Source: Deltaproteobacteria bacterium (GTDB lineage: Bacteria > Desulfobacterota > Binatia > JACPRU01). Taken from it: a stretch of DNA of 64,000 nucleotides. Each line of letters starts with the position of its first letter. Position 1 is the first letter of the stretch. Both the position numbers and the translations under genes were made by a program. Where the stretch lies: positions 8,253 to 72,252 of the forward strand of contig JACPRU010000033.1 in the NCBI GenBank assembly GCA_016189835.1, given 5' to 3'. The notes beneath the pieces are model-generated. The model had not been told where the DNA came from, made no database searches, and was given only the letters and a program-made list of their open reading frames with translations. Shown one piece after another: positions 4,476 through 23,917 of this stretch.

Positions 4476-4943
4476 GTGCGAACGCCCGCGATGCGCCGCC
4501 GGAGCCCCTGTCGCACATCGGTCAGCGGTCAGCGTGGAGTCGGGACGACGGAGTACGTCGTCCTCATCGTTCTGGCGGGGCTGGCCGCGCTGTCCCTGTA
4601 CGCGCAGTTCGGCAGGTCCGTCGGTGGCAAGGTGGACGTGGCGGGCAAGCGGGTGGAGGCGCTCGGTCAAGACCGAGCAGCGACGGTCGGGGGTGCTGCG
4701 GGCGTCGGGGGTTCGGGCCGGGAAGGCGACTCCGGGGCAGCCGCCGGCGGTGGCGCGGCGGCTGCGAGCGCGGAGGTGTTGCCCGAACCGATCGACGGCA
4801 GTAACCAGACGGCGGGCGGAGGGGTCGACACGCGCATGATCGTGCTGCTCGGGATCCTCGTGGTGGCCGTCGGAGCGCTAATGATCCTGGCCGTCGCTCA
4901 GCGCGTCCGCAAGGACAAGAAGAAGGCAAAAGCAGCGAGATAG
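4476..4943 (+). CDS. Flp-like prepilin with Gly/Ala-rich extension and a C-terminal TM helix (Flp2, atypical)
   Basis: 155 aa. The N-terminus GQRGVG|TTEYVVLIVLAGLAALSLY is the Flp motif. The C-terminus is MIVLLGILVVAVGALMILAV followed by RVRKDKKKAKAAR. The start is GTG 4476 or ATG 4491. Confidence 0.75.
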   Translation: MRTPAMRRRSPCRTSVSGQRGVGTTEYVVLIVLAGLAALSLYAQFGRSVGGKVDVAGKRVEALGQDRAATVGGAAGVGGSGREGDSGAAAGGGAAAASAEVLPEPIDGSNQTAGGGVDTRMIVLLGILVVAVGALMILAVAQRVRKDKKKAKAAR

Positions 4944-5804: not shown

Positions 5805-5807
5805 CGC

Positions 5808-7736
5808 ATGGGAAAGCGGACGATGGCGAAGAAGCCCGGCCCACGCCCGTTCCTGTCCGGCCCGCGCCGCTTCCTCGCGCCACGCGGAATGGGCGGCCAG
5901 ATCATCGTCTTCTACCTGGTCTTCATCATCCCGATGGCGATGCTGATGTTCTCGATCTACAACGTCGGCCAGCTCGCCACGGAGAAGATGAAGCTGCAGA
6001 ACGCGGCCGACAACGCCGCCTACTCCGCGGCCGTCTGGGAAGCGCGCTACATGAACCTCGACGCGTACATCGCCCGGGCGATGGTCGCGAACTACGACAC
6101 GATGGCGATGCTCTTGTCGATCTGGTCGGTCGCCGACTCGTGGGACGGGTTCATCGGCATCCTCAAGTTCGTCACGCAGTTCATTCCCTTCGGCATCGGC
6201 GCGGCGATCAAGGCGGTCCTCACGCCCATTCACATCGGGCTGCATCAAGCGAACCGGGGCCTCGCCAAGGCGATCGGCGGCGGCAAAGAGGGCCGGGCGA
6301 TGCTCTACGTGATGGAGATGTACGCGAAGATTCTCGGCTACGCGCAGGAAGCGCTGTACTTCCTGAACCAGGGCGGGCGGACCTCGGTGATCCAGTCGAT
6401 CGCCTGGGGGGTGGACCCCAAGATCCGCTACGTGGGGTTGGCGGAGGTCCTCAACGCGCTCAGCCTCAACTCGCGGATCAAGTGGGACAAGCTCGACTCG
6501 AGCAACGACTTCGACGAGGACAAGGCGCTGCGCCAGACGATCACCCGCTCGCTGAACGAGATCTCGCGCGGCAACAACTTCCGCGACGCCGGCAGCTCGC
6601 TGCTCAGCCCCATCAACGCGGTATTCTCGGTCTTCGATGCGGTGTGCAGCTTGATCACTCTCGGCAGCGGCGGCTTCAGCATCTCGATCGGGCCCGAGGG
6701 GTTCGACGTCAAGGACTTCGACGAGGTCACCGGGCAGATCGGCGGGCCGGGCGAGTGTAACTCGGGCTGCGACGAAGACCAGATCGTGCAGAACGACAAG
6801 CTCTACGAGCACGACTTCGCCGGCGTCGCACTGGAGCTCTGCGTCGTCACGGTCCGGGTGGGCCACCACAGCGACGACGCCTGGAACCTGGGCGGCAGCA
6901 AGGCGATCTCCATGAGCGGCATCAACGTCGCCCCGCCCCACCTGGTCGACGACGTGGAGACCACGGGCGACGACCACGGCGCGTTCCAGGACGTCAAGAA
7001 CTTCACCGACAACGGCATCGACTGCTCCTCGATCGGCACCGATCTCGGCGATGCGATCGGCGGGGGCAGCCTCGCCGACAACTGCCGCAGCAGCTCGTCG
7101 TCCACGTGCGGGTTCAGCGACCCGTTCCAGGCCATCACCCTGACGAACGCGCTCGAGAACGGCGACATCACGCCGGCGCAGTATCAATCGGCCTGCCGCT
7201 CGAGCCTGTGCAGCGGCGTCCCGGAGGGGTCGACCTGCGAGTCCGAGGTCCCCGATCTCGCCGACCGCCTGAACGCCGCCGACCGGTGCGGTTCGCTCTT
7301 GGCGCCGGGCGGCGAGTCGGCGGGAGGCTCCACGGACTTCGGCGGCACGAGCGCCGGCTCGGGCAGCGGCCCCTGCCAGACCGTGTACATGTTCGACACG
7401 CCGCTGAACGAAGTGCAGATGACCTGGTTCGTGCGCGACGACGACATCGACGACGCGCTCGATGGGCGCCGCGTGCAGGGGCCGACGGTCTTCGTCTACT
7501 TCGAGAAGCCGGCCGACAACCTGCCGCTCTTCCGCGGCCTCCACTACCCACAGCCGCTGACGCTCGGCGCCTACTCCTTCGCCAAGGTCTACTACACGCG
7601 CAAGCCCGGCGATACCGCGGCCTCGCCTGGCTCCGGGAACAAGCGCATCGAGGGTAAGGAGACGCTCTTCAACCCGTTCTGGGCGGCCCGGCTCGAGCTG
7701 CCGAAGATACTCGGCAGCAACATCCTCTTCCACTGA
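5808..7736 (+). CDS. TadG-like pilus assembly protein or large pseudopilin with a Cys-rich C-terminal region
   Basis: 642 aa. The N-terminus GGQIIVFYLVFIIPMAMLMFSIYNVGQLATEKMKLQNAADNAAYSAAV matches the Tad_N/TadG pattern. The C-terminal half has many Cys residues (GECNSGCDED, CRSSSSSTCG, CRSSLCSG..STCES). Confidence 0.75.
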   Translation: MGKRTMAKKPGPRPFLSGPRRFLAPRGMGGQIIVFYLVFIIPMAMLMFSIYNVGQLATEKMKLQNAADNAAYSAAVWEARYMNLDAYIARAMVANYDTMAMLLSIWSVADSWDGFIGILKFVTQFIPFGIGAAIKAVLTPIHIGLHQANRGLAKAIGGGKEGRAMLYVMEMYAKILGYAQEALYFLNQGGRTSVIQSIAWGVDPKIRYVGLAEVLNALSLNSRIKWDKLDSSNDFDEDKALRQTITRSLNEISRGNNFRDAGSSLLSPINAVFSVFDAVCSLITLGSGGFSISIGPEGFDVKDFDEVTGQIGGPGECNSGCDEDQIVQNDKLYEHDFAGVALELCVVTVRVGHHSDDAWNLGGSKAISMSGINVAPPHLVDDVETTGDDHGAFQDVKNFTDNGIDCSSIGTDLGDAIGGGSLADNCRSSSSSTCGFSDPFQAITLTNALENGDITPAQYQSACRSSLCSGVPEGSTCESEVPDLADRLNAADRCGSLLAPGGESAGGSTDFGGTSAGSGSGPCQTVYMFDTPLNEVQMTWFVRDDDIDDALDGRRVQGPTVFVYFEKPADNLPLFRGLHYPQPLTLGAYSFAKVYYTRKPGDTAASPGSGNKRIEGKETLFNPFWAARLELPKILGSNILFH

Positions 7737-7739
7737 GCG

Positions 7740-8852
7740 ATGGCTTCGCGACGATCATCGGCGAGCGCCCGCGATCACGGCCAGTCCCTGGTCGAGACGG
7801 TGATCTTCCTGCCCGTCCTGGTCATCATCTTCCTCGGCATGTTCTACCTGAAGGGCCTGCTCGACACCAAGATGCGGGCGGTCGAGGCGGCGCGCTACGT
7901 CACCTGGGAGAACACCTGGATCCCGCGCGAAGGGATCAACCTGAACGTCGCCGAGGACGGCCGCGCTCGCGGTCACAAGGGCAACGCGACGCTGCGCAAC
8001 GAGCTGATCCAGCTCGGCCTCGGAGCTTATCTCTGCAACTCTTGCCCCGCGCAGGGAGTCCAGGGCACGAAGCGCAAGGAGGGACTCGGCGACTACCTGA
8101 GCCGCGTCCAGCCGGGATCCGCGCCGATGACGACGACCATCCCCGCGGTGGTGACCCAGCTCTTCGGCGACCTCGCCGGCTTCGGCGGCGGCAGCACTTC
8201 GGCGTTCACGTCGAATCCCGACGGCCCGCCGAGCACCGGCGGCGGGTCGTCGAGCGGCAGCGGTGCGCTGTCGAGCCTCGATCTCGGCAGCGGCCTGAGC
8301 GACATCTTGAACATCGTCGGCGGAGCCGCCTTCACGGTCTACGGGGTCATGGGCCACCAGACCAAGTGGGGGACGGAGAGCGACGAGTCGGTGCTCACCT
8401 CCCAGGTCGTCTACAAGTACGACGCGGGGGGGACGACGATCTTCGTGCCGCGCTTCGTCTCCGAGCAGTCGAGCATCCTCTCCCACCCCTTCAACATCAA
8501 GCGCAGCAACGACAACGAGGAGCACCATCGCCTGGCGGGCGACGGCAGCTCGTGCACGGACACCAACAACCTCGGCCACATCTTCGATCTCTGGCTCTTC
8601 CCCTCGGGGCAGCCGACGGCGCTGCGCATTCCGAAATGCGCCTTCGCGGCGATCGCGACCGTCACCAATTTTCTCAGCGCCCTGAACCCGTTCTCGCCCA
8701 GCGTGCCGCTGCGGCTCCCGAACGGCACGCTCAAGGAGTACCCGGAGATGGATCTGCCGGCCAGCTCGGGGGTCGGCGGCGGCCCGTCGGGCTCGGGAGG
8801 CGGCACCGGCAGCGGCCTGGGCGGCGGCAGCTCGACGCCGCCGGGATCGTGA
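7740..8852 (+). CDS. TadE-like pseudopilin with a Gly/Ser-rich tail
   Basis: 370 aa. RDHGQS|LVETVIFLPVLVIIFLGMFYL is the TadE N-terminal motif. The C-terminus is GGGPSGSGGGTGSGLGGGSS. Confidence 0.75.
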   Translation: MASRRSSASARDHGQSLVETVIFLPVLVIIFLGMFYLKGLLDTKMRAVEAARYVTWENTWIPREGINLNVAEDGRARGHKGNATLRNELIQLGLGAYLCNSCPAQGVQGTKRKEGLGDYLSRVQPGSAPMTTTIPAVVTQLFGDLAGFGGGSTSAFTSNPDGPPSTGGGSSSGSGALSSLDLGSGLSDILNIVGGAAFTVYGVMGHQTKWGTESDESVLTSQVVYKYDAGGTTIFVPRFVSEQSSILSHPFNIKRSNDNEEHHRLAGDGSSCTDTNNLGHIFDLWLFPSGQPTALRIPKCAFAAIATVTNFLSALNPFSPSVPLRLPNGTLKEYPEMDLPASSGVGGGPSGSGGGTGSGLGGGSSTPPGS

Positions 8853-8863
8853 GGTCGCTATCG

Positions 8864-9658
8864 ATGAAGCGCAGAGTGCTGCCGTCGTGGGTTCACCTGG
8901 TCACCGCCGGGTTGATCGGCGCCCTGTTCCTGGCGTTCCTCATCGTGCGCAGCGGCGGCGTCGAGGCGCGCGCGCAGTCGTTCTTCGATCTGATCGCGCG
9001 GGGCACCGCGCCGATCCTGAATGTGGACTCGATGCTCGGCCGGCGAACCGCCGAGCCGGCGCAGGGCTCCTACGTGCTGAACGGCATGCACGTGAAGTAC
9101 TTCACGATGGGCGCGCCGCAGGGGGGCGGGAGGACGATCATCGAGCTCGAGAACCTGATGGCGCGGGCCGGCTACATCCACCGCATCATTCCGGTCCAGG
9201 GCGTGCCCACGCTGGTCGGCATCCATCCCGAGACCAAGATGCTGCTGACCGCGCGGCCGGGGCGCGACCGCCGGGGCGCTCCCGCCATTCGCTTCTCGCA
9301 GCAGAACCTCTCCGAGCTGCGCGAGGACTTCCCGGCGGAGATCCCCGGCGTGCCGGTCTATCCCGGGGCGAGCGGCAAGATGCTGATCTCGTCGGAGGGC
9401 GGCGCCAAGAGCGAGAGCCTGATGTACGCGGCCGGCGGCACGGCCGAGGACATCAGGCGCTACTACCTGGCGGAGATGCAGCTCGCGGGCTGGTCGCCGG
9501 TCGTCGCTCCGCCCGCGCCGGCCGGCCTCGCCGCCGGGGTGATGTTCTTCTCGAGGGGCGGGGAAGAGGCATCGGTGCTGCTGGCCGAAATCCCGCAAAC
9601 CGCCGCCGCGATGGTGCTGGTGACGGTCGGCGGCGCGCACGCGGCGGAGGCCGGATGA
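8864..9658 (+). CDS. N-terminally membrane-anchored hypothetical protein within the Tad operon
   Basis: 264 aa starting at the ATG inside ORF 8042..9658. It has one TM (VHLVTAGLIGALFLAFLIV). I recognise no family. Confidence 0.55.
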   Translation: MKRRVLPSWVHLVTAGLIGALFLAFLIVRSGGVEARAQSFFDLIARGTAPILNVDSMLGRRTAEPAQGSYVLNGMHVKYFTMGAPQGGGRTIIELENLMARAGYIHRIIPVQGVPTLVGIHPETKMLLTARPGRDRRGAPAIRFSQQNLSELREDFPAEIPGVPVYPGASGKMLISSEGGAKSESLMYAAGGTAEDIRRYYLAEMQLAGWSPVVAPPAPAGLAAGVMFFSRGGEEASVLLAEIPQTAAAMVLVTVGGAHAAEAG

Positions 9659-9698: not shown

Positions 9699-9728
9699 TT
9701 GTCAAATCACGACGCGGTGTCCTATAGG
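9699..9728 (+). promoter_or_regulatory. Candidate sigma70-type promoter (TTGTCA -N18- TATAGG) for flp3-cpaB
   Basis: -35 TTGTCA at 9699-9704 and -10 TATAGG at 9723-9728, followed by AGGAAG and ATG 9738. Motif match only. Confidence 0.35.
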
Positions 9729-9737
9729 AAGCTGGCC

Positions 9738-9914
9738 ATGAGCGAGTGCAAGCCCGCCTCACGACGTCGCGAGCGCGGTCAGGCGATGACGGAGTACGTC
9801 GTGCTTCTGTTCGGCTGCATGCTCGGGCTGCTGGCGATCCTGACGCCGATGGCCAACGCGATTCACAACTACATGAAGTCGATCTACTTCTGCGCGTCGC
9901 TGCCGTTCCCGTGA
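9738..9914 (+). CDS. Flp-family prepilin (Flp3)
   Basis: 58 aa. MSECKPASRRRERGQA|MTEYVVLLFGCMLGLLAIL is the Flp EY motif. I prefer the ATG with upstream AGGAAG over the TTG at 9699. Confidence 0.8.
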   Translation: MSECKPASRRRERGQAMTEYVVLLFGCMLGLLAILTPMANAIHNYMKSIYFCASLPFP

Positions 9915-9957: not shown

Positions 9958-10785
9958 ATGCAGAGTCGTATGCCGATCGTCGTTGCGCTCGTGGTCGCGG
10001 TCGCGGCGATCATTCTCACCAATCTGTACATCGAGCAGATCCGCCGGGAGTCCGAGCCGGCCACGTCGACCGTGATGGTGGCGTCCCGCGACCTGACGCC
10101 GGGGACGATCCTCGCCAAGGAGGACATCGCGTTCGCCGTCCGCTACACCCAGGCGCTGCCGCGGTTCAACGTGCCGTACAACGAGAACACGCTGTATCTC
10201 GGTCAGGAGCTGACGATCGCCGTGACCAAGGACGACTACATCCTGTCGACCTACTTCGGCGGCGGCGCGCCCGGCGAGCGCAAGCTCTCGCAGAAGGTCG
10301 ACGCCAAGCTCAATCAGCGCGCGATGACGATCCCGGTCGACAACGAGCAGGGTCTCGAGGGCTCGATCCTGCCGGGCGACCGCATCGACCTGCTGCTCAG
10401 CTACCAGACCGCCGTGCCGACCGAAGCGGTCGCGGCGAGGCCGCCCGCGGGGGCCGCCGCCGCCCCGCCGCGGCGCGCCGAGTTCGTCACCGCGTCGCTG
10501 CTCGAGAACGTATACGTGCTCACCACCGGCCGGTACGGCTCCGCCAGCGAGACGCAAGGGCGCTACCGCTCGCTCACCATCCTCGTCAGCCCCGTCGAAG
10601 CGAAGCTGCTGATCTGGGCCATGAACCTCGGGAAGCTCTCGGTGCTGCTGCGCAATCCCAAGGACTTGCAGGCCACCGATCGCGCGGTCGCCTCGGGAAA
10701 CACCGACGATCTCAAAGGCCTCGGCCAGGTGCGCTTGAATATCCCGGAGGTCGTGGCCAAGAATCGGGCCAGCGGCGGCCAATGA
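9958..10785 (+). CDS. cpaB: Flp pilus assembly protein CpaB/RcpC
   Basis: 275 aa. N-terminal TM, then a SAF-like segment (VMVASRDLTPGTILAKEDI) and an RcpC-like segment (MTIPVDNEQGLEGSILPGDRIDLL). Confidence 0.85.
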   Translation: MQSRMPIVVALVVAVAAIILTNLYIEQIRRESEPATSTVMVASRDLTPGTILAKEDIAFAVRYTQALPRFNVPYNENTLYLGQELTIAVTKDDYILSTYFGGGAPGERKLSQKVDAKLNQRAMTIPVDNEQGLEGSILPGDRIDLLLSYQTAVPTEAVAARPPAGAAAAPPRRAEFVTASLLENVYVLTTGRYGSASETQGRYRSLTILVSPVEAKLLIWAMNLGKLSVLLRNPKDLQATDRAVASGNTDDLKGLGQVRLNIPEVVAKNRASGGQ

Positions 10786-10808: not shown

Positions 10809-12434
10809 ATGATCTCGCTCAAGGTCCACGGCGAATCCCATCCCCAGTCCCGAGTCGAGCAGTTCGCCAAGGACGAGGTATCGATCGGGCGGGTGGCGGG
10901 GAACGACCTGGTCCTGGCCAACACCACGGTCTCCTCGCATCACGCGCGGATCTACCGGTCGAACGGCTCGTGGATGGTCGCCGACCAGGAAAGCACGAAC
11001 GGCACGTTCCTGAATGGGGAGCGGGTGGGCGGCCCGGCATCGCTGTCGGACGGCGACGAGATCGCGGTCGGCGAGTTCCGCATCCGCGTCGACCTCGGCC
11101 AGGAGGCGAGAGCGCCGGAGCCGGCGGGGGAGGCCGAGCCGGCGCACGCCGACGACGCCGCCGTGCGCGAGATCCGCCAGAAGATCCACAAGCGGCTGAT
11201 CGAGTTTCTCGATCTGCGCTGGGTGGATCTCAGCAAGCTAGGCGAGGACCAGATCCGCTCTCAGGCGCGCGGCGCGATCGAGAACATCCTGCGCGAGATG
11301 GCGTGGGAGATCCCGAAGGGGCTGAACCGCGACCGGCTCATCCAGGAAGTGCTCGACGAGGCCCTCGGCCTGGGGCCGCTCGAGGACCTGCTCGCCGACG
11401 ACGACGTCTCCGAGATCATGGTCAACCGCTTCGACCAGATCTACATCGAGCGCAAGGGCAAGCTGGTGCTCTCGGACAAGAAGTTCACCAGCAACCGCGC
11501 GGTGCTCGGCGCCATCGAGCGCATCGTCGCGCCAATCGGACGGCGCATCGACGAGAGCTCGCCGATGGTCGACGCGCGCCTCAAGGACGGATCGCGCGTC
11601 AACGCGATCGTCCCGCCGCTGGCGCTGAAGGGCCCGTCGATCACCATCCGCAAGTTCAACAAGACCCCGCTCACGGCCGACGACCTGGTGCGCTTCGGGG
11701 CCATGACCCGCGGCATGGCGAACTTCCTGAAGCTGTGCGTCGAGCTGCGCCAGAACATCGTGGTCTCCGGCGGTACCGGCTCGGGAAAGACCACCCTGCT
11801 CAACATGCTCTCGTCCTTCATCCCCGGCGACGAGCGCATCGTCACCGCCGAGGACTCGGCGGAGCTGAAGCTCCAGCAGGAGCACGTCGTCTCGCTCGAG
11901 ACCCGCCCGCCGAACCTCGAGGGAACCGGCGCGGTGACGATCCGCGACCTGGTGCGCAACTCGCTGCGCATGCGCCCCGACCGCATCGTGGTCGGCGAGT
12001 GCCGCGCGGGTGAGGCGCTCGACATGCTGCAGGCGATGAACACCGGTCACGACGGCTCGATGACCACCCTGCACGCGAACTCGCCGCGCGACGCCCTGGC
12101 GCGCATGGAGACCCTGGTGCTGATGGCCGGCATGGACCTGCCGGTGCGCGCGATCCGCGAGCAGATGGCCTCGGCGGTCAACATCATCCTGCAGCAGACG
12201 CGCTTCAGCGACGGCAGCCGCAAGGTGACCTCGATCTCGGAGGTCACCGGCCTCGACGGCGACCAGATCCAGGTCCAGGAGATCTTCTACTTCAAGCAGG
12301 ACGGTTACGACGCCAAGGGCAAGGTCGTCGGCCGCCACGTGCCGACCGGCTACATTCCGCGGTTCTACGAGCAGCTGCGCCAGCGCGGTCTAGCCGCCGA
12401 TCTGACGATCTTCCGCAGCGAGGAGGCGAGCTAA
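10809..12434 (+). CDS. FHA domain fused to a CpaF/TadA-type secretion ATPase (paralog 1)
   Basis: 541 aa. FHA signature IGRVAGNDLVL..SSHHARIY..STNGTFLNG. ATPase part: Walker [52 protein letters not shown]. Confidence 0.9.
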   Translation: MISLKVHGESHPQSRVEQFAKDEVSIGRVAGNDLVLANTTVSSHHARIYRSNGSWMVADQESTNGTFLNGERVGGPASLSDGDEIAVGEFRIRVDLGQEARAPEPAGEAEPAHADDAAVREIRQKIHKRLIEFLDLRWVDLSKLGEDQIRSQARGAIENILREMAWEIPKGLNRDRLIQEVLDEALGLGPLEDLLADDDVSEIMVNRFDQIYIERKGKLVLSDKKFTSNRAVLGAIERIVAPIGRRIDESSPMVDARLKDGSRVNAIVPPLALKGPSITIRKFNKTPLTADDLVRFGAMTRGMANFLKLCVELRQNIVVSGGTGSGKTTLLNMLSSFIPGDERIVTAEDSAELKLQQEHVVSLETRPPNLEGTGAVTIRDLVRNSLRMRPDRIVVGECRAGEALDMLQAMNTGHDGSMTTLHANSPRDALARMETLVLMAGMDLPVRAIREQMASAVNIILQQTRFSDGSRKVTSISEVTGLDGDQIQVQEIFYFKQDGYDAKGKVVGRHVPTGYIPRFYEQLRQRGLAADLTIFRSEEAS

Positions 12435-12436
12435 CG

Positions 12437-13300
12437 ATGTTCGGCACGGGACTTCCGGTCGGTCCGCTGCTGTCGCTGGTGCTCGCCACGGCGCTCGCGA
12501 CGATGTTCTACGGCGCGTGGACGATGCTGGAGGCGGCCTACGCCGATTACCGTAAGGCGTACGTCGCGGAGGCCGCGGTGTCGCTCGGCGACCTGTTTTC
12601 CACGATGAGCCCGGAGCGGGTCTTCAACCTAAGCCTGCTGTTCGCCGGGATCGCGTTCATGCTCTTCGCGGTGCTGATCAACGTGATCGCCGGCGCGTTC
12701 TTCGCGGTGGGCGCCTTCTTCTCGCCGCGCATGTACTTCAACCTCGCCCGCGACAAGCGCCGCCTGGTGTTCTCCGAGCAGCTCGTCGATGCCCTCGGCA
12801 TGATGGCGAATTCGCTGCGCGCGGGGTTGACGCTGCCGCAGGCGATGGAGCTGGTGCAGCGCGAGATGAAGCCGCCGATCACCCAGGAGGTCGGCCGGGT
12901 CCTGCAGGACTACCGCCTCGGCAAGGATTTCGACGAGGCGATGCTGTCGATGGCGAAGCGGGTCGGGAGCCGCGACCTCGACATCCTCGTCAACTCGGTG
13001 ATGATCACCCGGCGCAGCGGCGGCAACGTCGGCGAGATCTTCGGCAACATCGCCACCACGATCCGCGAGCGCTTCCGAGTCGAGCAGAAGCTGCGCGCCA
13101 TGGCGTCGACCGGCACCGCCCAGGCCTTGCTCATGTCGGCGATGCCGTTCATGTTGATGGGAGCGCTGTTCTTCGTCGAGAAGGAGTACGTGATCCTCTT
13201 GTTCTCGACCACCGTCGGCCTGATCGCGGTCGGCGTGGTCGTGTTCCTGGTGGTCGCCGCGTTCTTCTGGATCCGGCGCATCATGGACCTGGACATCTGA
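12437..13300 (+). CDS. tadB: TadB-like type II secretion system F-family platform protein
   Basis: 287 aa. The T2SSF domain pattern is LVDALGMMANSLRAGLTLPQAME...ITRRSGGNVGEIF, flanked by TM helices. Confidence 0.85.
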   Translation: MFGTGLPVGPLLSLVLATALATMFYGAWTMLEAAYADYRKAYVAEAAVSLGDLFSTMSPERVFNLSLLFAGIAFMLFAVLINVIAGAFFAVGAFFSPRMYFNLARDKRRLVFSEQLVDALGMMANSLRAGLTLPQAMELVQREMKPPITQEVGRVLQDYRLGKDFDEAMLSMAKRVGSRDLDILVNSVMITRRSGGNVGEIFGNIATTIRERFRVEQKLRAMASTGTAQALLMSAMPFMLMGALFFVEKEYVILLFSTTVGLIAVGVVVFLVVAAFFWIRRIMDLDI

Positions 13301-13301
13301 G

Positions 13302-14201
13302 GTGGCGATGGGCTTCGACGTGCTGACGTTCTACGCGATTCTCGGCTGCTGGGCGGTCGCCTCGTTCCTGCTCACCTACCTGATCATCATCAACCGCCCG
13401 GAGGCGATCGCGCGCCCGGAAGGCCGCGAGGAGCAGATCCCGAACGCGGTGATGCGCATCGCGCTGCCGATCGCCCGCATGCTCGCTCCATTGCACCGCA
13501 ACGCGGCGAACACGCCTCGCGGCCGCGACCTGAACCGCACGCTGGTACGCGCCGGGCGGCCCTTCGGCCTGACCGTCCCGGAGTTTCTCTGTCTGCGCTA
13601 CGTGGCGATCGTCGCCGGGGCGCTGTTCGGCTGGGCGATCGCCTTCGGCTTCACGGGGCGAGGCGATCCGGTCTACGTGGCGGGCGGCGTGGTGCTGTTC
13701 TTGATGCTGCCGGGGTCGCGCCTGAAGGGCATGGTGGAGTGGCGGCGCGTGCGGATCTTCCGCGACATGCCGTACGTGCTCGACCTGCTGGTGTTGTCGA
13801 CGGAAGCCGGCCTCGACTTCTCCTCGGCGATGAACACGGTGGTTGAGAAGGGTCCGAGCGGTCCGCTGGTCGACGAGTTTCGCGTCGCGCACCAAGAGGT
13901 GACGCTCGGCAAGTCGCGCGCGGACTCGCTGCGCGCCATGGCCGAGCGCATCGACCTCGCCGAGCTGACGAGCTTCATCCTGGCGCTGATCCAAGCCGAG
14001 CAGCTCGGTGCGAGCGTCGGCAAGATCCTGCGCATCATGTCCGAGCAGATGCGCATCAAGCGCTTCACGATCGCCGAGGAGATGGCCGGGAAGGTTCCGG
14101 TGAAGCTCATGGCGCCGCTCTTCGTTTGCATCTTCCCGGCCTCCTTCCTGGTCCTCGGCGTGCCGATCTATCTGAAGGCGAGCCTCGGCGGGCTGAGCTG
14201 A
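13302..14201 (+). CDS. tadC: TadC-like type II secretion system F-family platform protein
   Basis: 299 aa. MPYVLDLLVLSTEAGLDFSSAMNTVV...LIQAEQLGASVGKILR with C-terminal TM helices. Confidence 0.85.
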   Translation: MAMGFDVLTFYAILGCWAVASFLLTYLIIINRPEAIARPEGREEQIPNAVMRIALPIARMLAPLHRNAANTPRGRDLNRTLVRAGRPFGLTVPEFLCLRYVAIVAGALFGWAIAFGFTGRGDPVYVAGGVVLFLMLPGSRLKGMVEWRRVRIFRDMPYVLDLLVLSTEAGLDFSSAMNTVVEKGPSGPLVDEFRVAHQEVTLGKSRADSLRAMAERIDLAELTSFILALIQAEQLGASVGKILRIMSEQMRIKRFTIAEEMAGKVPVKLMAPLFVCIFPASFLVLGVPIYLKASLGGLS

Positions 14202-14214
14202 GATCCCGCTGCCT

Positions 14215-15639
14215 ATGAACGTTCGCCTCGAGGACGTCGAAGAGATCCGCTTCGTCGTGGTCCAGGGCGCCACCACCGGATCGCGGGTCACCTTCGCCCC
14301 CGAGCCCCGCACCGTGCGCATCGGCCGCGCGGTGGACAACGACATCGTGCTGAACGATCCGGCCGTGTCGCGGGCGCACGCCCGGGTCGACATTTCGGCC
14401 GACGGCGCGCGGATTCAGGACCTCGGCAGCGCGGGTGGAGTCGAGAAGATGGGGTTCCGGCTCGGCGCCGCTGCCGAGCCGCTGGTGAGCGGCGACGAGT
14501 TCAAGATCGGCGCGACGATCCTGCGCTACGAGCTGCTTCTCAAGAGGGGCGCCGTTCGCCGCGCCGCGAAGCCGGAGGAGGAGGCGGCGAAGAAGAAGGC
14601 CGCGCTGCCGGCGCCAAGGGAGCTGGTCGGCGCGGTGAGCAAGTCGTTGCGCCGATTCGGGCTGCGCACCCCGGCGAGCCAGATCCTCGCGCTCGCCGCC
14701 GTGGCCGCGCTCCTCGTCGTCGCCTTCTGGCCGTCGAAGCCCGGCCTGCCCCCGCAAGCCGGGGCCGAGCCGGCGCCGATCAACTTCGAAGCGGTGGTCG
14801 GCTACGTGCCGGGGGGCGACCAGAGCCATCTCGACGGCGCGGTCTTCGAGATCCCGACCGACGCCGACGCCCAGGCGATCTACTTCAAGGTGAACGCGCC
14901 GCACGGGATCGACGTGCGCGTCGGCAAGCAGGTGATCGTCTCGCAGAAGCCGTCCGGCGACTGGCGCGATCTCATGTTGCTGGTGATCCCGCGGGCGGTG
15001 TCCGGGGACGGCGCGCCGCAGTTCGTGCTCGACAACCTCGGCTACGCGCCGGCCGACGGCGGGGTAGACCCCGCGGCCGCTCCCGGCTGGGCGGTGGCGA
15101 GGATGTGGGCGGCACGGGTTGCGGCGGGCGCCACGCTGCAGGCGCAGGTCACCGCCGACGCCAAGATTCTCGAGACGCTGTCGACGGAAGTGGCGCAGGA
15201 TTCGCGAGAGCTCTACCGCTTGGTGGCCGGACTGCGCAGCCTCGCGGTGGGGCTCATGAAGCTCGCCGGCCGCCCGGTGATCGTCCTGCAGCTCGGCGGC
15301 ACGGCCCGGGGAGACCTGGTCACGCCCGCCCTGCGGTCGGCGCGCGAGGCGCTCGAGGGCGGCCAAAACGGGCCGGCGCTCGACCGCCTGACGCAGGCGC
15401 TCGGGGCGGCCGAGAGCCGGCTCGATCGCGAGTACCGCGAGCGCTTCAACGCGCTCCAGCTGCTGCAGAAGCGTGGCGCTGGCCAGGAGGTGGGGGCCTT
15501 GCTCGCCTCGCTCGAGCCCTGGATCCCGGAGCCCACCGATCCGCGTCATCGCGAGATCCTCAGCCAGAAGCAAAACCTTGATGCGGCGGCCCAATACGGC
15601 TACGACGAGGCCAAGAAGAAGGCCGAGCTCGAAGATTAG
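14215..15639 (+). CDS. Bitopic FHA-domain protein (cytoplasmic FHA, one TM, about 290-aa periplasmic region)
   Basis: 474 aa. FHA signature IGRAVDNDIVLNDPAVSRAHARVD...SGDEFKIG. TM helix ILALAAVAALLVVAFW. The C-terminal domain is unrecognised. Confidence 0.8.
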   Translation: MNVRLEDVEEIRFVVVQGATTGSRVTFAPEPRTVRIGRAVDNDIVLNDPAVSRAHARVDISADGARIQDLGSAGGVEKMGFRLGAAAEPLVSGDEFKIGATILRYELLLKRGAVRRAAKPEEEAAKKKAALPAPRELVGAVSKSLRRFGLRTPASQILALAAVAALLVVAFWPSKPGLPPQAGAEPAPINFEAVVGYVPGGDQSHLDGAVFEIPTDADAQAIYFKVNAPHGIDVRVGKQVIVSQKPSGDWRDLMLLVIPRAVSGDGAPQFVLDNLGYAPADGGVDPAAAPGWAVARMWAARVAAGATLQAQVTADAKILETLSTEVAQDSRELYRLVAGLRSLAVGLMKLAGRPVIVLQLGGTARGDLVTPALRSAREALEGGQNGPALDRLTQALGAAESRLDREYRERFNALQLLQKRGAGQEVGALLASLEPWIPEPTDPRHREILSQKQNLDAAAQYGYDEAKKKAELED

Positions 15640-15648
15640 GCCGGCAAG

Positions 15649-17193
15649 ATGATTCTCTCGGTTTCGCAAGCCGGAAACGGGTCGCCCCGGCGCCTCGATC
15701 TCCAGGGCGCGGAAGTCGTGCTCGGGAAGCATCCCGATTGCGACGTCGTGCTCGCCGACGCGAAAGTGTCCCGCCGCCACGCGCACATCGTGTCCCGCGC
15801 CGGAGCGCTGTTCATCAACGACCTCGGCAGCACCAACGGCACGAAGGTCAACGGCAAACGGCTCGACGGCGAGGCGCCGCTGCGCAGCGGCGACGTGATC
15901 GAGATCGCCGCGTTTCGCATCCAGGTCGACGAAGGCCCCGCCGGCGCCGCGCCCCGGCCGGCGCAGCGGGCGCCGGCGGAGCCGAAGCCGGCGGCGCCGA
16001 AGCTCGCGGAGAAGGCGGCGGAGGCGAAGGCCGAGGAGGAGAGCGAAGAGGCCAAGAAGGCGCGCATGTTCTGGGCCTCGATGGAGAGCTTCTTCCAGCC
16101 GATCTGGCAGTACATCGAGAACCCGTCGGTGTCGGAGATCATGGTGAACGGCCCGCGGGAGATCTTCTTCGAGAGGAAGGGGAAGCTCGAGCGGTCGCCG
16201 GCGACGTTCACCGAGGAGGGCGTCCGCGCGGCGATCATGAACGTGGCCCAGTTCATGGGCCGGCGCGTGAACGAGGAGAATCCCTATCTCGACGCCCGCC
16301 TGCCCGACGGCTCGCGCGTGGCCATCGTGCTGCCGCCGTGCTCGCGCAAGGGGCCGAGCATCGCCATCCGCAAGTTTTCGAAGGAGAAGCTGACGCTCCA
16401 GGACCTGATCCGCTTCGGGACGATGAGCGAGGAGATCGTCCAGTTTCTCGACATCGCCGTGAAGCTGCGCAAGAACATGATCGTCTCGGGCGGCACCAGC
16501 TCGGGAAAGACCAGTCTTCTGAACATCATCTCGGCGCTGATCCCGAACGAGCAGCGCATCCTCGTGATCGAGGACTCGGCCGAGCTGCAGCTCCAGCAGG
16601 AGCACGTGCTGCCGCTGGAATCGAAGCCGCCCGACAAGCACGGCAAGGGCGAGGTGACGCTGCGCGAGCTGGTTCGTGCCTCGCTGCGCCTGCGTCCCGA
16701 CCGGATCGTCGTCGGCGAGGTGCGCGGCGGCGAGGCGCTCGACCTGCTGCAGGCGATGAACACCGGACACTCCGGGTCGCTGGCGACGACCCACGCCTCC
16801 TCGCCGTTGCAGACGCTCTCTCGTCTCGAGACCCTGACGCTGTTCTCGGGCCTCGACCTGCCGATCATCGCCATCCGCGAGCAGGTCTCGACGGCGATCG
16901 ATCTCATCATCCAGGCCGCGCGGCTGCCCGACGGGTCGCGCAAGGTGACGCACATCTCGGAGGTCCTGTCGCTGACGCCGGAAGGCAAGTACCAGGTGCA
17001 GGACATCTACCGCTTCGTGCGCACCGGCATGGAGGGGGACCGCATCGTGGGCGAGCATCGAGCCGCCGGAAACCTTCCGTCGTTCCTCGACGAGATCGAG
17101 CTCGCGGGCTTCAAGCTTCCTCCCTCGCTGGCCGAGCTGGCGAGCCAGCCCGGGGCCCGAGAGAAGGTCGCGCGCAAGGCCGGCGCGCATTGA
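15649..17193 (+). CDS. FHA domain fused to a CpaF/TadA-type secretion ATPase (paralog 2)
   Basis: 514 aa. FHA signature LGKHPDCDVVLADAKVSRRHAHIV..STNGTKVNG. ATPase part: [51 protein letters not shown]. Confidence 0.9.
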   Translation: MILSVSQAGNGSPRRLDLQGAEVVLGKHPDCDVVLADAKVSRRHAHIVSRAGALFINDLGSTNGTKVNGKRLDGEAPLRSGDVIEIAAFRIQVDEGPAGAAPRPAQRAPAEPKPAAPKLAEKAAEAKAEEESEEAKKARMFWASMESFFQPIWQYIENPSVSEIMVNGPREIFFERKGKLERSPATFTEEGVRAAIMNVAQFMGRRVNEENPYLDARLPDGSRVAIVLPPCSRKGPSIAIRKFSKEKLTLQDLIRFGTMSEEIVQFLDIAVKLRKNMIVSGGTSSGKTSLLNIISALIPNEQRILVIEDSAELQLQQEHVLPLESKPPDKHGKGEVTLRELVRASLRLRPDRIVVGEVRGGEALDLLQAMNTGHSGSLATTHASSPLQTLSRLETLTLFSGLDLPIIAIREQVSTAIDLIIQAARLPDGSRKVTHISEVLSLTPEGKYQVQDIYRFVRTGMEGDRIVGEHRAAGNLPSFLDEIELAGFKLPPSLAELASQPGAREKVARKAGAH

Positions 17194-17220
17194 AGCCGCG
17201 GCGACGCGAGGGGAGGATCA

Positions 17221-18747
17221 GTGGCCGAAGAGAAGAAGCCGCCCGCGTTTGATCCGGACAAGACCGTCGTCGACGTGCGCCGCCGCGACGCTCCGCCGGC
17301 GGACGAGCGGACCATCGTCGCGCCCCGGCCGCCCGCCGAGCGGCCGGCGGCACCGGCGGCGGATGCCGAACGCACGGTGGTGATGACCCGCCGTCCGGCG
17401 GTGACGGAGGATCTCGACAAGACCCGCGTCGCCGCCGCGCCGGGCGCGGGCGCCGGGGCGATGGACCGGACGATGGTCACGCCGGTCGGAGCTCCGCCGG
17501 CGAGCGCCGCCGCCGCCCGCGGCGGGGATTTCTTTCTCGTGCTGCTCTCCGGATCGCAACGCGGACAGCGCTTCCCCCTCGGCCACGGCGACTTCTCGAT
17601 CGGCTCGGCCGCCGGCGCCCACGTGCGCCTGGCGACCGCCGAGCCGGCGCACGCGAAGCTCACTCGAGAGGACGACGGCTACGAGCTGCAGAACACCGGC
17701 AGCCGCGGCTCGGTGATCGCCCACGGTCGAGCGATCACGCGGTCGAAGCTGAGGACCGGCGACCTGTTCAAGGTCGGCGATCACGTGCTGCGACTGGTGA
17801 AGGTCGGTGACGTCTTCTCCTCGGATTACTCGGACTCGGACTTCGAAGCCCCGGGAGCCGGCCGCTTTCTCGACCCCGAGTACCTGCGCGAGCATCCCGC
17901 CCTGCTCGCCGTGGCGGGCGTCGTGGTCGTCGCCCTGGTGGTGTTCTTCTTCCGGCCGCAGTCCTCGGCGCCGCCCCCGACGCCGACCACCGCGACGGAC
18001 GACAACGCGCAGCGGGCCGAGCGAGCCAAAGAGGTGAGCGCGATGCTGCTCGCCGGCGAGGTGCTCTTCAATCAGGGTCGCTACGTGGCGCCGCCCGACC
18101 GGCCGGAGGAGGAAAACGCCTACGCGAAATTCAACCACGCCCTGGCACTCGATCCGGGCAACGACCAGGCGCGCGACTGGTTGAAGAAGATCGACGGCAA
18201 GCTCGACGAGTCACGCCGCGAGCGCGAGCAAGCCGAGCTCAAGCGCCTCGCGGCGGAGGAGGCCGCGCGGGAGGCGGAGCGCCGGCAGCTCGCCAAGCGG
18301 GTCGAGGCCATCCTGGTGGTCGGAGACCAGCTCTTCCAGGCCGGCAAGGTGGTCGAGCCGGCCGGAGACAACGCGCTCGTGCGCTACCGCGAGGCGCTGA
18401 AGGTCGACCCGGACAGCGTCGAGACCCAGGGGCGCATTCGGCGCGCGATCTACTCGCTGGTCGAGCAGGGGGACGGCTACCGCGACCGGAAGGACAACTG
18501 GCGAGCGCTGGAGCAGTACCGCAAGGCCGACCGTGCGGCCGCGCACAAGGATCCCGAGATCGTCGCCCGGCTCGATGAAACCGAGAAGATGTTGAAGTCG
18601 GGGATGGCGAGCACGCAGACGCGGATCGTCATCTACCGCGACGACAACGGCCAGCTCTACGTGCTCGACGAGATGGACAAGGTGCCCGCTCGATACCGAG
18701 ATCGAGCGATCGAGATCAATCCGGTCCAGAATCCGGCCCAACCCTGA
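17221..18747 (+). CDS. Bitopic protein: disordered Pro/Ala N-terminus, divergent FHA-like domain, one TM, TPR-like periplasmic region
   Basis: 508 aa. FHA-like segment FFLVLLSGSQRGQRFPLGHGDFSIGSAAGAHVRL...TGDLFKVGDHVLRLV. TM helix LLAVAGVVVVALVVFFF. TPR-like helices are (YAKFNHALALDPGNDQARDWL) and (RYREALKVDPDS). Confidence 0.7.
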   Translation: MAEEKKPPAFDPDKTVVDVRRRDAPPADERTIVAPRPPAERPAAPAADAERTVVMTRRPAVTEDLDKTRVAAAPGAGAGAMDRTMVTPVGAPPASAAAARGGDFFLVLLSGSQRGQRFPLGHGDFSIGSAAGAHVRLATAEPAHAKLTREDDGYELQNTGSRGSVIAHGRAITRSKLRTGDLFKVGDHVLRLVKVGDVFSSDYSDSDFEAPGAGRFLDPEYLREHPALLAVAGVVVVALVVFFFRPQSSAPPPTPTTATDDNAQRAERAKEVSAMLLAGEVLFNQGRYVAPPDRPEEENAYAKFNHALALDPGNDQARDWLKKIDGKLDESRREREQAELKRLAAEEAAREAERRQLAKRVEAILVVGDQLFQAGKVVEPAGDNALVRYREALKVDPDSVETQGRIRRAIYSLVEQGDGYRDRKDNWRALEQYRKADRAAAHKDPEIVARLDETEKMLKSGMASTQTRIVIYRDDNGQLYVLDEMDKVPARYRDRAIEINPVQNPAQP

Positions 18748-19415: not shown

Positions 19416-20921
19416 ATGCTGCTCTCGATCCAGCGCGAAGGCGCGCCGGCGCACGAGGTGAACATCCCCGGCGAGACCGCCGTGCTCGGCAAGCACGCCG
19501 ATTGCGAAGTCGTTCTCGACGACCCGCTGGTCTCGCGCCGCCACGCGCGCCTGCGTCTGGACGCCGGCCGCATCGTGCTCGAGGACCTCGGCAGCACGAA
19601 CGGCACGGAGCTCGCCGGACAGCCGGTGGAAGGACAGCGGGTCGTCGAGCCCGGCCAGGAGATCCGCATCGGCCCGTTCGCGATCTTCGCGTCACTGCCC
19701 GAAGTGACGCTCGTGCAGCACGCCCCGGCGCCCGCCGTCGCGGCGGGCTCAGCCGTGGGCGCCGGGATCTCGGCCGCGGACTCCGTGCAGCCCGCACCGG
19801 CCCCGGCCGCATCGGCGCCCGCCGCCGCACCGGCGCCTGCCGTCGCAGCGGCGCCCAACGTCGCGATGGCGGGCGTGGATTTCGGGCCGCTCGCGCCGTT
19901 GATGGCCGCCGACGAGGTGAGCGAGATCATGGTGAACGGCCCCGACGAGGTGTTCGTCGAGCGCGGCGGGCGGCTGGAGCTGACCGGCGCGTGCTTTTCC
20001 TCGGCGGATGCGCTGGGCGAGCTGATCCGCACGCTCGCCACCCAGGGCGGGCGATCGATCGACGAGCGCCGGCCGATGGTCGACGCGCGCATGCGCGACG
20101 GGTCCCGTCTGAACGCGATTCTCCCGCCGCTCGCGCTGCGGGGACCTTGCTTGACGATCCGGCGCTTTCCGCGCCAGCGGCTCTCGGCGGCGGATCTGGT
20201 GTCGGTCGGAGCGCTGAGCGAGCCGATGCTGGCCTTCCTGCGCCTCGCCATCCACGGCAAGCTGAGCCTGCTCGTGTCCGGGGGAACCGGCTCGGGGAAG
20301 ACCACGCTGCTGAACGCGCTGGCCAGCTTCGTCGGCGACGATCAGCGCATCATCACCATCGAGGACGCCGCCGAGCTGCGGCTGCCGCAACGGCACGTGT
20401 TGCCGCTCGAGGCCCGCCCGCCGGACCCGGACGGCGGCGGCCAGGTGACGATTCGCGAGCTGGTGCGCAACGCGCTGCGCATGCGTCCGGACCGGATCGT
20501 GGTCGGCGAAGTGCGGGGCGCCGAGGCGCTCGACATGCTCCAGGCGATGAACACGGGGCACGAGGGCAGCCTGTCGACGGTCCACGCGAATTCGCCTCGC
20601 GAAGCGCTGTCCCGCCTCGAGACGCTCGTGCTGTTCGCCGGTGCGGACCTGCCGCCGCGCGCGATTCGCGAGCAGATCCTCGGCGCCATCCGGCTGCTCG
20701 TTCACACCGCGCGGGGCGACGACGGCAAGCGGCGCGTGACCTCGATCACCGAGCTCTCCGGCATGGAAGGGGAGCAGTTCACGCTCGGCGAGATCTTCCG
20801 CTACGAGCCCGGCGCGGGGGGGACGGGCCAGTTCCGCGCCACCGGCTACGTGCCGCGGTGTCGCGACCGGCTCGCCGAGCGCGGATTCGCCGCCGACAAC
20901 GCCTGGTTCCAGCCGAGGTAG
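19416..20921 (+). CDS. FHA domain fused to a CpaF/TadA-type secretion ATPase (paralog 3)
   Basis: 501 aa. FHA signature [33 protein letters not shown]. ATPase part: [51 protein letters not shown]. Confidence 0.9.
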
Positions 20922-20930
20922 GCCGGCCGC

Positions 20931-22294
<1,364 letters not shown>

Positions 22295-22310
<16 letters not shown>

Positions 22311-23917
22311 GGGCGGTCCTCGGCGTCGGCCAGGGCGGCGGTGCGGAAATCGACGGGCAGCGCCACCGTGAAGGTGCTGCCTTGTCCCGGCGTGCTTTCC
22401 ACCGTCAGGCGTCCGCCGTGCATCTCGACGAGCTGGCGGCTGATCGCCAGTCCGAGGCCGCTGCCGGTGCGGCGGCCGCGCGCGCGTTGGACCTGATGGA
22501 ACTTGTCGAAGACCCGCTCGATCTCGACCGCCGGAATTCCCACCCCGGAGTCCCGTACCAGCAGCTTGACGATGCCGCGCTCGTCGACGACCCGCACGTC
22601 CACCCGTCCCCCGGCCGGGGTGAACTTGATGCCGTTGTGCAGCAGGTTGATCAGCACGCGCGAGATCTTGTCGCGATCGGCGCGGATGGTCAGCGCGGGC
22701 GGCTCGACCGCCGCCACCTGCACGCGGTGCTCCTCGGCGAGCGGCCTCAGGGTCTCGAGCGTCTCGCGGATCAGCGCGTCGAGCGGGAAGCGAGTCGCGA
22801 GCACTTCCTCCTTGCCGGCCTCGATCCGCGACAGATCGAGCAGCTCGTTGATGAGCCGCAGCAGCCGGTGGCTGTTGTCCTTGATGCGCACGAGATAGGA
22901 GCGAGGGCGCTCGTCGAGCGGGCCGGTGATGCCGTCGAGTAGGTTGTCCGCGGCGCCCATGATGGAGGTCAGCGGCGTGCGCAGCTCGTGGGACACCTTG
23001 GAGATGAACTCCGACTTCAACTCCGACAGCTCCTTCAGCCGCAGCGCGGCCTCGTGCTCGCGCTCGTAGGCGTCGGCCTGCAGCAGCGCCACGCCGAGCT
23101 CGGCGGCGATCTGCGAGAGCACCGCGACGTCCGAGGCCGAGAACGCGTCCTGCCTGCGGCTGCCGAGATGGAACGTTCCGATCGCCTGATCGCCGACCAC
23201 GAGCGGCAGCACCACCTCGCGGCGGCTCGCCGACAGGCTGAGCGTGTCCTCGTCGACGCCGCCGAGCGCGACGTCGTACACGGCGGGCTCGCGCCGCCTG
23301 ACGACGTCCGCCACGCGCGAGCCGGCGAGCGGGATGCGCTTTCCCTGCAGCCCCCCGGGATTTCCCGAGATCGCGAACACGGTGGCGGTCTGCGGATCGA
23401 CGACGCGGGTGATCGAAGCCTGATCGAAATCGACGAGGCGCCGAGTGCCGTCGACCACCGCCGCGAAGATGCGCTGGAAATCGAGGCTCGAATTGACCGC
23501 GTTGGTGACCTCGTGGATCAGCGAGAGCCGCTCGCTGGCCTCGCGTAGCGCTTCGGTGCGCTCCTCGACCTTGCGCTCGAGGTCACGGTTGAGCTCCTCG
23601 AGCTGGCGCACCTTGTCGCGAAGCTGCTCGCGCATGCGGTCGATCTCGGCGCCGAGCAAGCCGATCTCGTCGCCGGTCCGCGCCGGCACGGGGTCGTCGT
23701 AGTGGCCTTCGCCGATGCGGCGCGTCGCGCTGACCAGCTGGTCGAGGCTGCGCGCGATCGAACGACCGAGCACGGTGGCCAGCGCGATGGCGAACACGGC
23801 CAGCGCGGTCAGCCCCGCCTGCACCCACCAGTCCCAGGGCGGCATCGAGACCAGCAGGATCGCGGCGGTGACGATCTCGAGCGCGTAGATCAACAGCTTG
23901 CCGCGGATCGTGAACAC
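22295..23917 (-). CDS. Sensor histidine kinase (TM, HAMP, coiled coil, GAF, HisKA, HATPase_c)
   Basis: 540 aa. H-box SHELRTPLTSI, N-box LINLLHNGIKFT, G-boxes DSGVGI and GSGLGLAI. It overlaps the response-regulator start by 16 nt, which implies an operon. Confidence 0.9.

Follow-up and report, generated by a model that had tools for sequence, protein, structure and literature searches.

The Kil system of Myxococcus xanthus is a Tad-like machinery that has an FHA-fused ATPase (KilF) but no TadZ, and in which FHA proteins are over-represented (Seef et al. 2021, PMC8460266). In its cluster 2, the genes are arranged in the order KilB-KilG-KilH-MXAN_4649-MXAN_4648: MXAN_4649 contains an FHA domain and has an HHpred match to PrgH, and MXAN_4648 combines an HHpred match to protein kinase G with an FHA domain and TPR repeats (PMC8460266). 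Kil-like systems have been reported only in Myxococcales, Bdellovibrionales and Bradymonadales (PMC8460266), and later work (Nat Commun 2025) as well as a 2025 review still treat the Kil FHA proteins as uncharacterised signalling candidates. Here, we describe a Tad-type pilus operon in a 64,000-nucleotide stretch of DNA from a Deltaproteobacteria bacterium of the Binatia (assembly GCA_016189835.1, contig JACPRU010000033.1, positions 8,253 to 72,252; this whole stretch is called the window), and in particular two of its genes, protA and protB (Table 1). We lean towards the view that the two products are conserved bitopic accessory subunits (N-terminus in, C-terminus out) of a type IVc (Tad) pilus of the Kil type and form a phosphothreonine/FHA scaffold at the platform.

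In the initial annotation, protA was described as a protein with a clean FHA domain, a single transmembrane helix and an unrecognised region of about 290 amino acids, and this description holds: amino acids 15-104 match the Pfam families FHA (2.1e-11) and Yop-YscD_cpl (4.7e-12), the only hydrophobic segment is located at about amino acids 153-172 (Kyte-Doolittle peak 2.24), and no Pfam, NCBIfam or PDB sequence match was found for the C-terminal 299 amino acids. Similarly, the comparison of a hidden Markov model (HMM) profile of the periplasmic part with PDB sequences yielded nothing below E=0.45, and kinship of this part to CpaB was rejected (hhalign probability 0.1). The AlphaFold2 model, which like that of protB was built on the family alignment, has a predicted local distance difference test score (pLDDT) of 85. 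In this model, the FHA domain spans amino acids 8-109 and the transmembrane helix 153-170, and the periplasmic part, with nine predicted β-strands followed by helices, folds into a β-sandwich (194-302) and a helical bundle (309-473). An invariant PPQ motif directly follows the transmembrane helix, and a DPR motif is conserved close to the C-terminus. The protein is identical to an NCBI entry from a metagenome-assembled genome (MAG), 'FHA domain-containing protein [Deltaproteobacteria bacterium]', and has 26 full-length homologues.

The description of protB as a protein with a more divergent FHA-like fold and a transmembrane helix was likewise correct; this protein, too, is identical to an entry from a 'Deltaproteobacteria bacterium' MAG at NCBI. 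Amino acids 108-194 match Yop-YscD_cpl (3.9e-11); PF00498 was not reported at E values up to 0.01, a family whose threshold is passed by protA. Again there is only one transmembrane segment (about amino acids 226-244, Kyte-Doolittle value 2.86). The model (pLDDT 76) comprises a disordered stretch (amino acids 1-101), the FHA fold (104-194), the transmembrane helix (226-243), a helical region (261-460) and a small β domain (469-499), so that the predicted periplasmic part is nearly all helical with a terminal β hairpin. This part is TPR-like, as had been noted: two TPR-like repeats of the type 'xPxGxNAxxxYxxxLxxDPxN' flank a 59-residue helix (amino acids 315-373), and helical-hairpin repeats are visible in the model and as this conserved motif only, but the best Pfam match, TPR_11, remains below threshold (22.4 bits vs a cutoff of 26.8). 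The C-terminal β module (amino acids ~465-500) carries the invariant pattern Y..D..G.....D...K.P.RY.DRA; its likeness to DUF4124, guessed by eye, had no Pfam support. When the full-length models of both proteins were compared with the PDB using Foldseek, the matches listed concerned the FHA domains only, and it is therefore the FHA folds alone that were compared. These matches (E ~1e-7 to 1e-8) include GarA/OdhI, DgcB, FhaA, YscD and PscD: the FHA domain of protA matches that of GarA/OdhI with E 3.5e-8 and TMt 0.86, and the FHA fold of protB has FHA matches at E ~1e-7, the YscD structure 4a0e among them. With NCBIfam, too, the matches were essentially those of the FHA region.

Both architectures are family traits. 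A single transmembrane peak is present in 27/27 members of the protA family and in 28/28 members of the protB family, in agreement with the topology initially proposed. Three features make an N-in/C-out orientation of both proteins likely: the FHA domains are of a cytoplasmic type, no signal sequence is present at the N-terminus, and the charges around the transmembrane helix are biased (an excess of Lys and Arg on the N-terminal side in 26 of 27 protA-family members). The two families comprise about 27-30 full-length homologues each, which share 37-82% identity and are all derived from metagenomes or MAGs; their relatives bear the names Candidatus Binatia or Binatota.

The neighbourhood is exactly as had been noted: protA directly precedes the gene for the second of three FHA-CpaF ATPases (CpaF2), protB precedes that for CpaF3 with a repeat gene in between, and CpaB precedes CpaF1. 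We compared this arrangement with seven related Binatia loci, two of which were obtained via protA homologues and five via TadC, independently of protA and protB; the TadC scan covered one genome per species and reached only five MAGs labelled Binatia or 'uncultured delta proteobacterium', and no Myxococcus. All loci of sufficient length have the genes in the order CpaB-CpaF1-TadB-TadC-protA-CpaF2-protB-CpaF3, with an own orthologue of each of the three ATPases. Both genes are thus present in the syntenic relatives and occur there beside the FHA-CpaF paralogues throughout, so that the initial annotation, which their absence from such loci would have refuted, stands in this respect.

To reach the wider family, we searched 1.84 billion representative proteins with an HMM restricted to the periplasmic part of protA. 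This search identified 75 proteins, most of them of about 440-485 amino acids and with a match starting near amino acid 165. Outside the Binatia group, a second set of matches (E values of 1e-22 to 1e-7) again consists of proteins of 440-485 amino acids; a further homologue search with a mixed profile (A5) added only P0137. Although found by their periplasmic part alone, the distant proteins retain the FHA-transmembrane architecture. Their FHA domain has a characteristic G-S-x-x-G-x-x-x-M-G-F loop, the transmembrane helix is followed by [GA][LF]P[PKA]Q and a β-rich region that contains the motifs FDN and W[AG]V, and the helical C-terminus ends in P-[DE]-x-x-D-[PY]-R. Their genes always come after TadC, with a DUF192 gene intervening in some loci, and the adjacency of TadB/TadC and a protA-type gene is kept in 14/14 related loci. 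Moreover, the gene next to the distant protA type, or one ATPase further, always encodes a protein with one or more FHA domains, a transmembrane helix and TPR repeats. This synteny persists even where the periplasmic domain shares only about 20% identity with that of the window protein (alignment A5).

The distant loci differ in their ATPases. Loci L008 and L014, with two ATPases, have the order CpaB-FHA.CpaF-TadB-TadC-protA type-FHA.CpaF2, followed by a protein of ~800 amino acids with a Pkinase-family domain, an FHA-like domain, a transmembrane helix and repeats. The protA-type and protB-type genes are contiguous in L009-L013. In L009, with one ATPase, FHA.CpaF-TadB-TadC-protA type is followed by an 802-amino-acid protein with three FHA domains, a transmembrane helix and TPR repeats and then by a TPR protein; L013, also with one ATPase, has the order FHA-less CpaF-TadB-TadC-protA type-684-amino-acid protein. 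In L010 and L012, from Desulfosarcinaceae and Desulfobacterales MAGs of the Desulfobacterota, the order is CpaB-secretin-ATPase-TadB-TadC-DUF192-protA type, the secretin gene being located between CpaB and the ATPase, followed by a protein with two FHA domains, a transmembrane helix and TPR repeats, a short FHA-less ATPase and a TPR protein. The protB of the window is homologous to the kinase-like protein of L008 (BLASTP 1e-14; hhalign probability 99.4, E 1.7e-21), and this homology covers the FHA-like domain, the transmembrane helix and the periplasmic repeats. In a neighbour-joining tree of the ATPases, CpaF2 groups with the second ATPase of L008 and with the second, short one of L010, and CpaF3 forms a Binatia-only branch. 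The constant unit is the pair of a protA-type and a protB-type protein tied to the TadB/TadC platform; the number of ATPases varies from one to three, and so does their placement. Because both the distant loci and M. xanthus keep the pair while the ATPases vary, the comparison argues for an ancestral protA/protB pair linked to TadB/TadC, into which the additional ATPase paralogues were interleaved later.

The likeness to the Kil system extends to several features. Both systems place an FHA protein and then an FHA and TPR protein directly after two platform genes of the T2SSF family, the FHA-fused CpaF-type ATPase has its counterparts in CpaF1-3, and neither the operon nor the other called genes in the window yielded a TadZ/CpaE (ParA/MinD-like). 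In addition, the kinase-like N-terminus of MXAN_4648 is also present on the protB-type proteins of L008 and L014. On the other hand, the Kil system has one ATPase, encoded in another cluster, whereas here three are interleaved with the pair, and protB has a tail of threonine motifs in place of a kinase-like domain; this tail replaces the kinase-like or FHA N-terminal module of the distant protB types. Finally, the host differs: to our knowledge, Binatia are not known as predators, and our literature search returned nothing on such a system in Binatota. The two proteins thus look like an uncharacterised FHA pair of the Kil type with new traits, i.e. the three interleaved FHA-ATPases, the multi-threonine tail and the host lineage.

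What could such a pair do? The two FHA domains are not equivalent. That of protA keeps the GR (R38) and SRxH motifs (SRAH; S52, R53, H55), which are invariant in the family, and has 'GSAGGVEKMGF' (SAGG) where STNGT/STNG is expected. In contrast, the FHA-like domain of protB has lost the canonical residues: it has GS for GR, EPAH for SxxH and SRGSV for STNGT, and thus neither the canonical Arg nor Ser nor Asn. Instead, the disordered tail of protB contains five D/E-K/R-T-[VMI]-V motifs, at T15, T31, T52, T68 and T84. The motif occurs in two to six copies in 28/28 members of the protB family, with a near-invariant threonine in a tail that is otherwise variable and rich in indels. In its strict form it is present four times in protB and nowhere else in the other ~16,000 amino acids of window proteins that were scanned. 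Similar acidic-x-T-[VIL] motifs are found in the cytoplasmic linkers of the protB-type proteins of L008-L011 and L014, located in L008 and L014 between the kinase-like and the FHA-like domain. As for possible readers, the FHA domain of CpaF1 has the residues GR/SSHH/STNGT. The Foldseek matches of both FHA domains include 6hc1, the FHA domain of Bdellovibrio DgcB bound to its own phosphorylated N-terminal tail, and 3oun, the FHA domain of FhaA bound to the pseudokinase domain of MviN.

We propose that the protA/protB pair serves at the TadB/TadC platform both as a scaffold that spans the membrane and in signalling. The threonines in the tail of protB would be phosphorylated by a kinase encoded elsewhere, and the phosphorylated motifs would dock the FHA domains of CpaF1-3 and protA, which look canonical. 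Such docking would determine the choice or the number of motors on the platform. As for the periplasmic domains, they might join the cytoplasmic hub to periplasmic or outer-membrane components such as CpaB, the secretin or the cell wall, or might sense cues from the envelope or from contact. In this way the pair would functionally replace TadZ and the anchors of the GspL/PilMNO type, which were not found in the operon; by analogy, a replacement of the TadZ/alignment functions is plausible. More specifically, the tail may be a multi-site landing strip for phosphothreonine readers, with a phosphorylation pattern that selects the CpaF motor, for instance for extension, retraction or secretion, and a pair that transmits this state across the membrane, but to this extended version we give only a small chance.

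Comparable arrangements are known from other envelope machines. GspL/GspM/GspC and PilM/N/O/P are bitopic inner-membrane proteins whose cytoplasmic part holds the ATPase and whose periplasmic part reaches the secretin. By analogy, protA and protB could fill such an anchoring role in a Tad system without TadZ; however, the cytoplasmic modules of the GspL/PilM type are actin-like rather than FHA domains, and no similarity in sequence, nor a demonstrated one in fold, was found. GltG of the Agl-Glt gliding machine of M. xanthus is bitopic as well, with one or more cytoplasmic FHA domains, one of them beside the transmembrane helix, and a periplasmic extension (PMC11761067). It connects a motor with components in the periplasm, and a TPR scaffold is predicted to offer multiple docking sites to its FHA domain (PMC11761067). 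This order of FHA domain, transmembrane helix and periplasmic extension is shared by protA and protB, and the NCBIfam GltG model NF033760 gives a match of 42 bits vs a cutoff of 650, in the FHA domain only. GltG differs in its C-terminal TonB-C-like domain and in its motor, which is TolQR-like and no pilus ATPase. With respect to phosphorylation, the PpkA-Fha1(TagH) threonine phosphorylation pathway of the type VI secretion system has been cited as an analogy for Kil (PMC8460266). In PpkA-Fha1, MviN-FhaA and DgcB, an FHA domain reads phosphothreonine in a disordered tail or a pseudokinase and thereby controls the assembly or activity of an envelope machine, a scheme which the putative readers of the protB tail would resemble. 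The difference is that protB has several repeated motifs, with up to four FHA readers in one operon.

Several observations weigh against a phosphothreonine/FHA scaffold of the Kil type. Among the called genes of the window, neither a Ser/Thr (Hanks) kinase nor a PP2C phosphatase was found. The protB-type proteins that begin with a Pkinase-family domain (L008:13061-15466 and L014:10876-13257) lack, in our reading, the GxGxxG motif, the Lys and Asn of the catalytic loop and the Asp of DFG ('HGHLDSR' and 'LAGY' are found instead); they may represent a conserved pseudokinase fused to the FHA-transmembrane-TPR part, which weakens the case for phosphorylation. On the reader side, the FHA domains of CpaF2 and CpaF3 (GK/SRRH/STNGT) have a Lys in place of the canonical Arg, and the +3 position of the threonine motif, which is usually decisive in FHA binding, varies. 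The positive-inside bias of the protB family is weak, with an excess of Lys and Arg on the N-terminal side in just 17/28 members. The link of protA and protB to MXAN_4649 and MXAN_4648 is based on gene order and the published domain table, not on sequence comparison. Finally, the called genes of the window include neither a secretin nor a prepilin peptidase that could be recognised, and precomputed Pfam lists show no secretin within ±10 kb in two Binatia relatives, L001 and the P0009 contig. Such parts, which are not found locally, have to be encoded elsewhere, as in the split kil clusters of M. xanthus.

A rather unlikely alternative is that protA and protB are mainly transmembrane sensors or regulators and no structural parts; their FHA domains would relay an envelope or contact cue, detected by the periplasmic domains, to the ATPases or to the neighbouring σ54 two-component system. 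The FHA proteins of the kil clusters have been proposed as signalling candidates, the homologues in L008 and L014 carry a kinase-like module, and a σ54-dependent response regulator and a HAMP-GAF histidine kinase, which probably regulate the pilus operon, are conserved just downstream. However, the strict position after TadB/TadC and the co-transcription with structural genes fit a stoichiometric component equally well, and the sequence data do not separate a sensor from a scaffold.

The initial annotation had read the locus as three dedicated modules, each made up of an envelope-spanning adaptor and a motor (CpaB-CpaF1, protA-CpaF2 and protB-CpaF3) and each with its own periplasmic partner. 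Some observations favour this idea: within the Binatia, the adjacency is exact and kept, each ATPase paralogue has its own set of orthologues, and in L008 and L014 an FHA-CpaF gene also directly follows protA. In other distant loci, the modules are not kept: the protA type comes after TadC without an ATPase directly behind it in L009, L010, L012 and L013, and the second ATPase of L010 and L012 is located downstream of the entire pair. CpaB precedes the ATPase in ordinary cpa/tad operons with a single ATPase, too. Moreover, the MXAN_4649/MXAN_4648 pair of M. xanthus belongs to cluster 2, which has no ATPase (PMC8460266). Thus, the adjacency stands as an observation for the Binatia, but as an explanation of the locus the three modules are doubtful.

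The topology of protA and protB also recalls the SctD class of type III secretion systems (YscD/PrgH/EscD), as had been noted before, and this raises the question whether they encircle the platform as a large oligomeric ring in the inner membrane. Like SctD proteins, they have an N-terminal cytoplasmic domain with FHA fold that is followed by one transmembrane helix and a periplasmic region, and the FHA-fold domain of SctD proteins is often degenerate for phosphothreonine binding, as in protB. Further points in favour are the Yop-YscD_cpl matches of both proteins, the cytoplasmic domains of YscD and PscD among the structural matches and the PrgH match of MXAN_4649 (PMC8460266). However, Yop-YscD_cpl belongs with FHA, its scores for the FHA domains of CpaF1-3 are as high or higher, and the top structural matches are ordinary FHA domains (GarA/OdhI). 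The SctD model TIGR02500 reaches 19 bits with protA vs a cutoff of 86, and this in the FHA and transmembrane part only, and does not match protB. In addition, the predicted periplasmic folds, a nine-strand β-sandwich plus helical bundle and TPR-like helices, respectively, are not the three ring-building αββαβ domains of SctD, and the gene context is that of a Tad pilus with no type III secretion genes nearby. We therefore conclude that the resemblance to YscD and PrgH is one of topology only; an SctD-like ring is quite improbable. That the two genes are mere passengers unrelated to the pilus machinery is hardly credible, since the only argument for it is that their periplasmic parts lack functional annotation, and the gene order is kept across lineages down to the low periplasmic identity given above and in relatives of which five were found via TadC.

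The operon that harbours protA and protB is compact and extends on the plus strand from ~4.5 kb to 20.9 kb of the window (G+C ~70%), with gaps of 9-69 nucleotides between the genes from TadC to CpaF3. The G+C content at third codon positions (GC3) is 0.91 for protA and 0.89 for protB, and thus resembles that of the plus-strand genes of the operon (~0.9). Minus-strand coding was considered for the long antisense open reading frames (ORFs) and rejected: with a G+C content at first positions (GC1) of ~0.9 and products rich in Arg and Leu they are shadow ORFs, and this applies also to the 1027-amino-acid frame at 14107-17190 (-) that covers protA and CpaF2 (GC1 0.91, GC3 0.70, 17% Arg). All three CpaF proteins carry an N-terminal FHA domain (9e-21 to 5e-17) and a T2SSE domain in Pfam; by eye, their Walker A, Asp-box, Walker B and His-box motifs are intact. 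The first gene of the operon has an unusually long product for a Flp-like protein (155 amino acids) with two hydrophobic segments (amino acids ~21-47 and ~113-145) and no match in a Pfam search. The product of the 255-amino-acid gene has no Pfam or NCBIfam match, and the gene is homologous to genes for 263-271 amino acids in L001 and L002 (tblastn 2e-45 and 6e-72). The 191-amino-acid repeat protein has just weak DUF2812/DUF4177 matches; because its gene stands between protB and CpaF3 only in the window and in a single close relative and is missing from L001, L003, L005 and L007, we regard it as accessory rather than as a conserved part of the system. Downstream, the σ54 regulator is convergent with the end of the operon in the window, in L001, L003 and L005 and on the P0009 contig, and the histidine kinase is located beside it in the window, in L001 and on the P0009 contig.

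Table 1. Features of the pilus locus, in coordinates of the window (aa, amino acids; TM, transmembrane)
Feature	Positions	Strand	Basis or remark
Flp-like gene	4476-4943	+	Flp-like by position only
TadE-, TadG- and TadE-like pseudopilins	4956-8852	+	
255-aa gene	8864-9628	+	real gene, hidden in the ORF list within the longer ORF 8042-9658
71-aa gene, conserved	9699-9914	+	just upstream of cpaB
CpaB/RcpC, N-terminal TM	9958-10785	+	immediately before FHA-CpaF1
FHA-CpaF paralogue 1 (CpaF1)	10809-12434	+	
TadB and TadC platform genes (T2SSF)	12437-14201	+	directly upstream of protA
protA, FHA-TM-periplasmic β-sandwich and helical domain, 474 aa	14215-15639	+	
protA cytoplasmic FHA domain, aa 15-104	14257-14526	+	Pfam, family alignment, Foldseek
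protA TM helix, ~aa 153-172	14671-14730	+	hydropathy, alignment, AlphaFold2 model
protA extracytoplasmic region, aa 176-474	14740-15636	+	AlphaFold2 model
FHA-CpaF paralogue 2 (CpaF2)	15649-17193	+	between protA and protB
protB, Thr-motif tail-degenerate FHA-TM-TPR-like/coiled-coil/β periplasmic region, 508 aa	17221-18747	+	
protB disordered N-terminal tail, aa 1-101	17221-17523	+	pLDDT below 50
protB FHA-like domain, aa 104-194	17530-17802	+	Pfam, alignment, Foldseek
protB TM helix, ~aa 226-244	17896-17952	+	hydropathy, AlphaFold2 model
protB extracytoplasmic region	17968-18744	+	alignment, AlphaFold2 model
Accessory gene, four internal repeats, 191 aa	18817-19392	+	between protB and CpaF3
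FHA-CpaF paralogue 3 (CpaF3)	19416-20921	+	
σ54-dependent response regulator	20931-22310	-	convergent with the pilus operon
HAMP-GAF-HisKA histidine kinase	22295-23917	-	adjoins the σ54 response regulator

Our analysis defines two sequence families, the protA type (FHA domain, transmembrane helix, 'GLPPQ', β-sandwich and helical domain) and the protB type (one or more FHA or kinase-like domains, transmembrane helix and TPR-like region). The FHA proteins of the Kil system have been proposed to link prey contact, machine assembly and motility arrest, and none of them has been characterised. The pair is conserved across several lineages, among them non-predatory Binatia and MAGs of the Desulfobacterota, and coexists with one to three ATPases; its occurrence in these two groups questions the restriction of such systems to predators. 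The five threonine motifs of protB are a concrete and mutable feature, and they offer a handle on the recruitment, and perhaps the switching, of motors in Tad/Kil machines that lack TadZ. If the phosphorylation pattern of the tail did select the motor, a Tad pilus would exchange its motors under the control of phosphorylation, and would do so in a lineage, the Binatia, that does not belong to the predators in which alone Kil-like systems had been expected.

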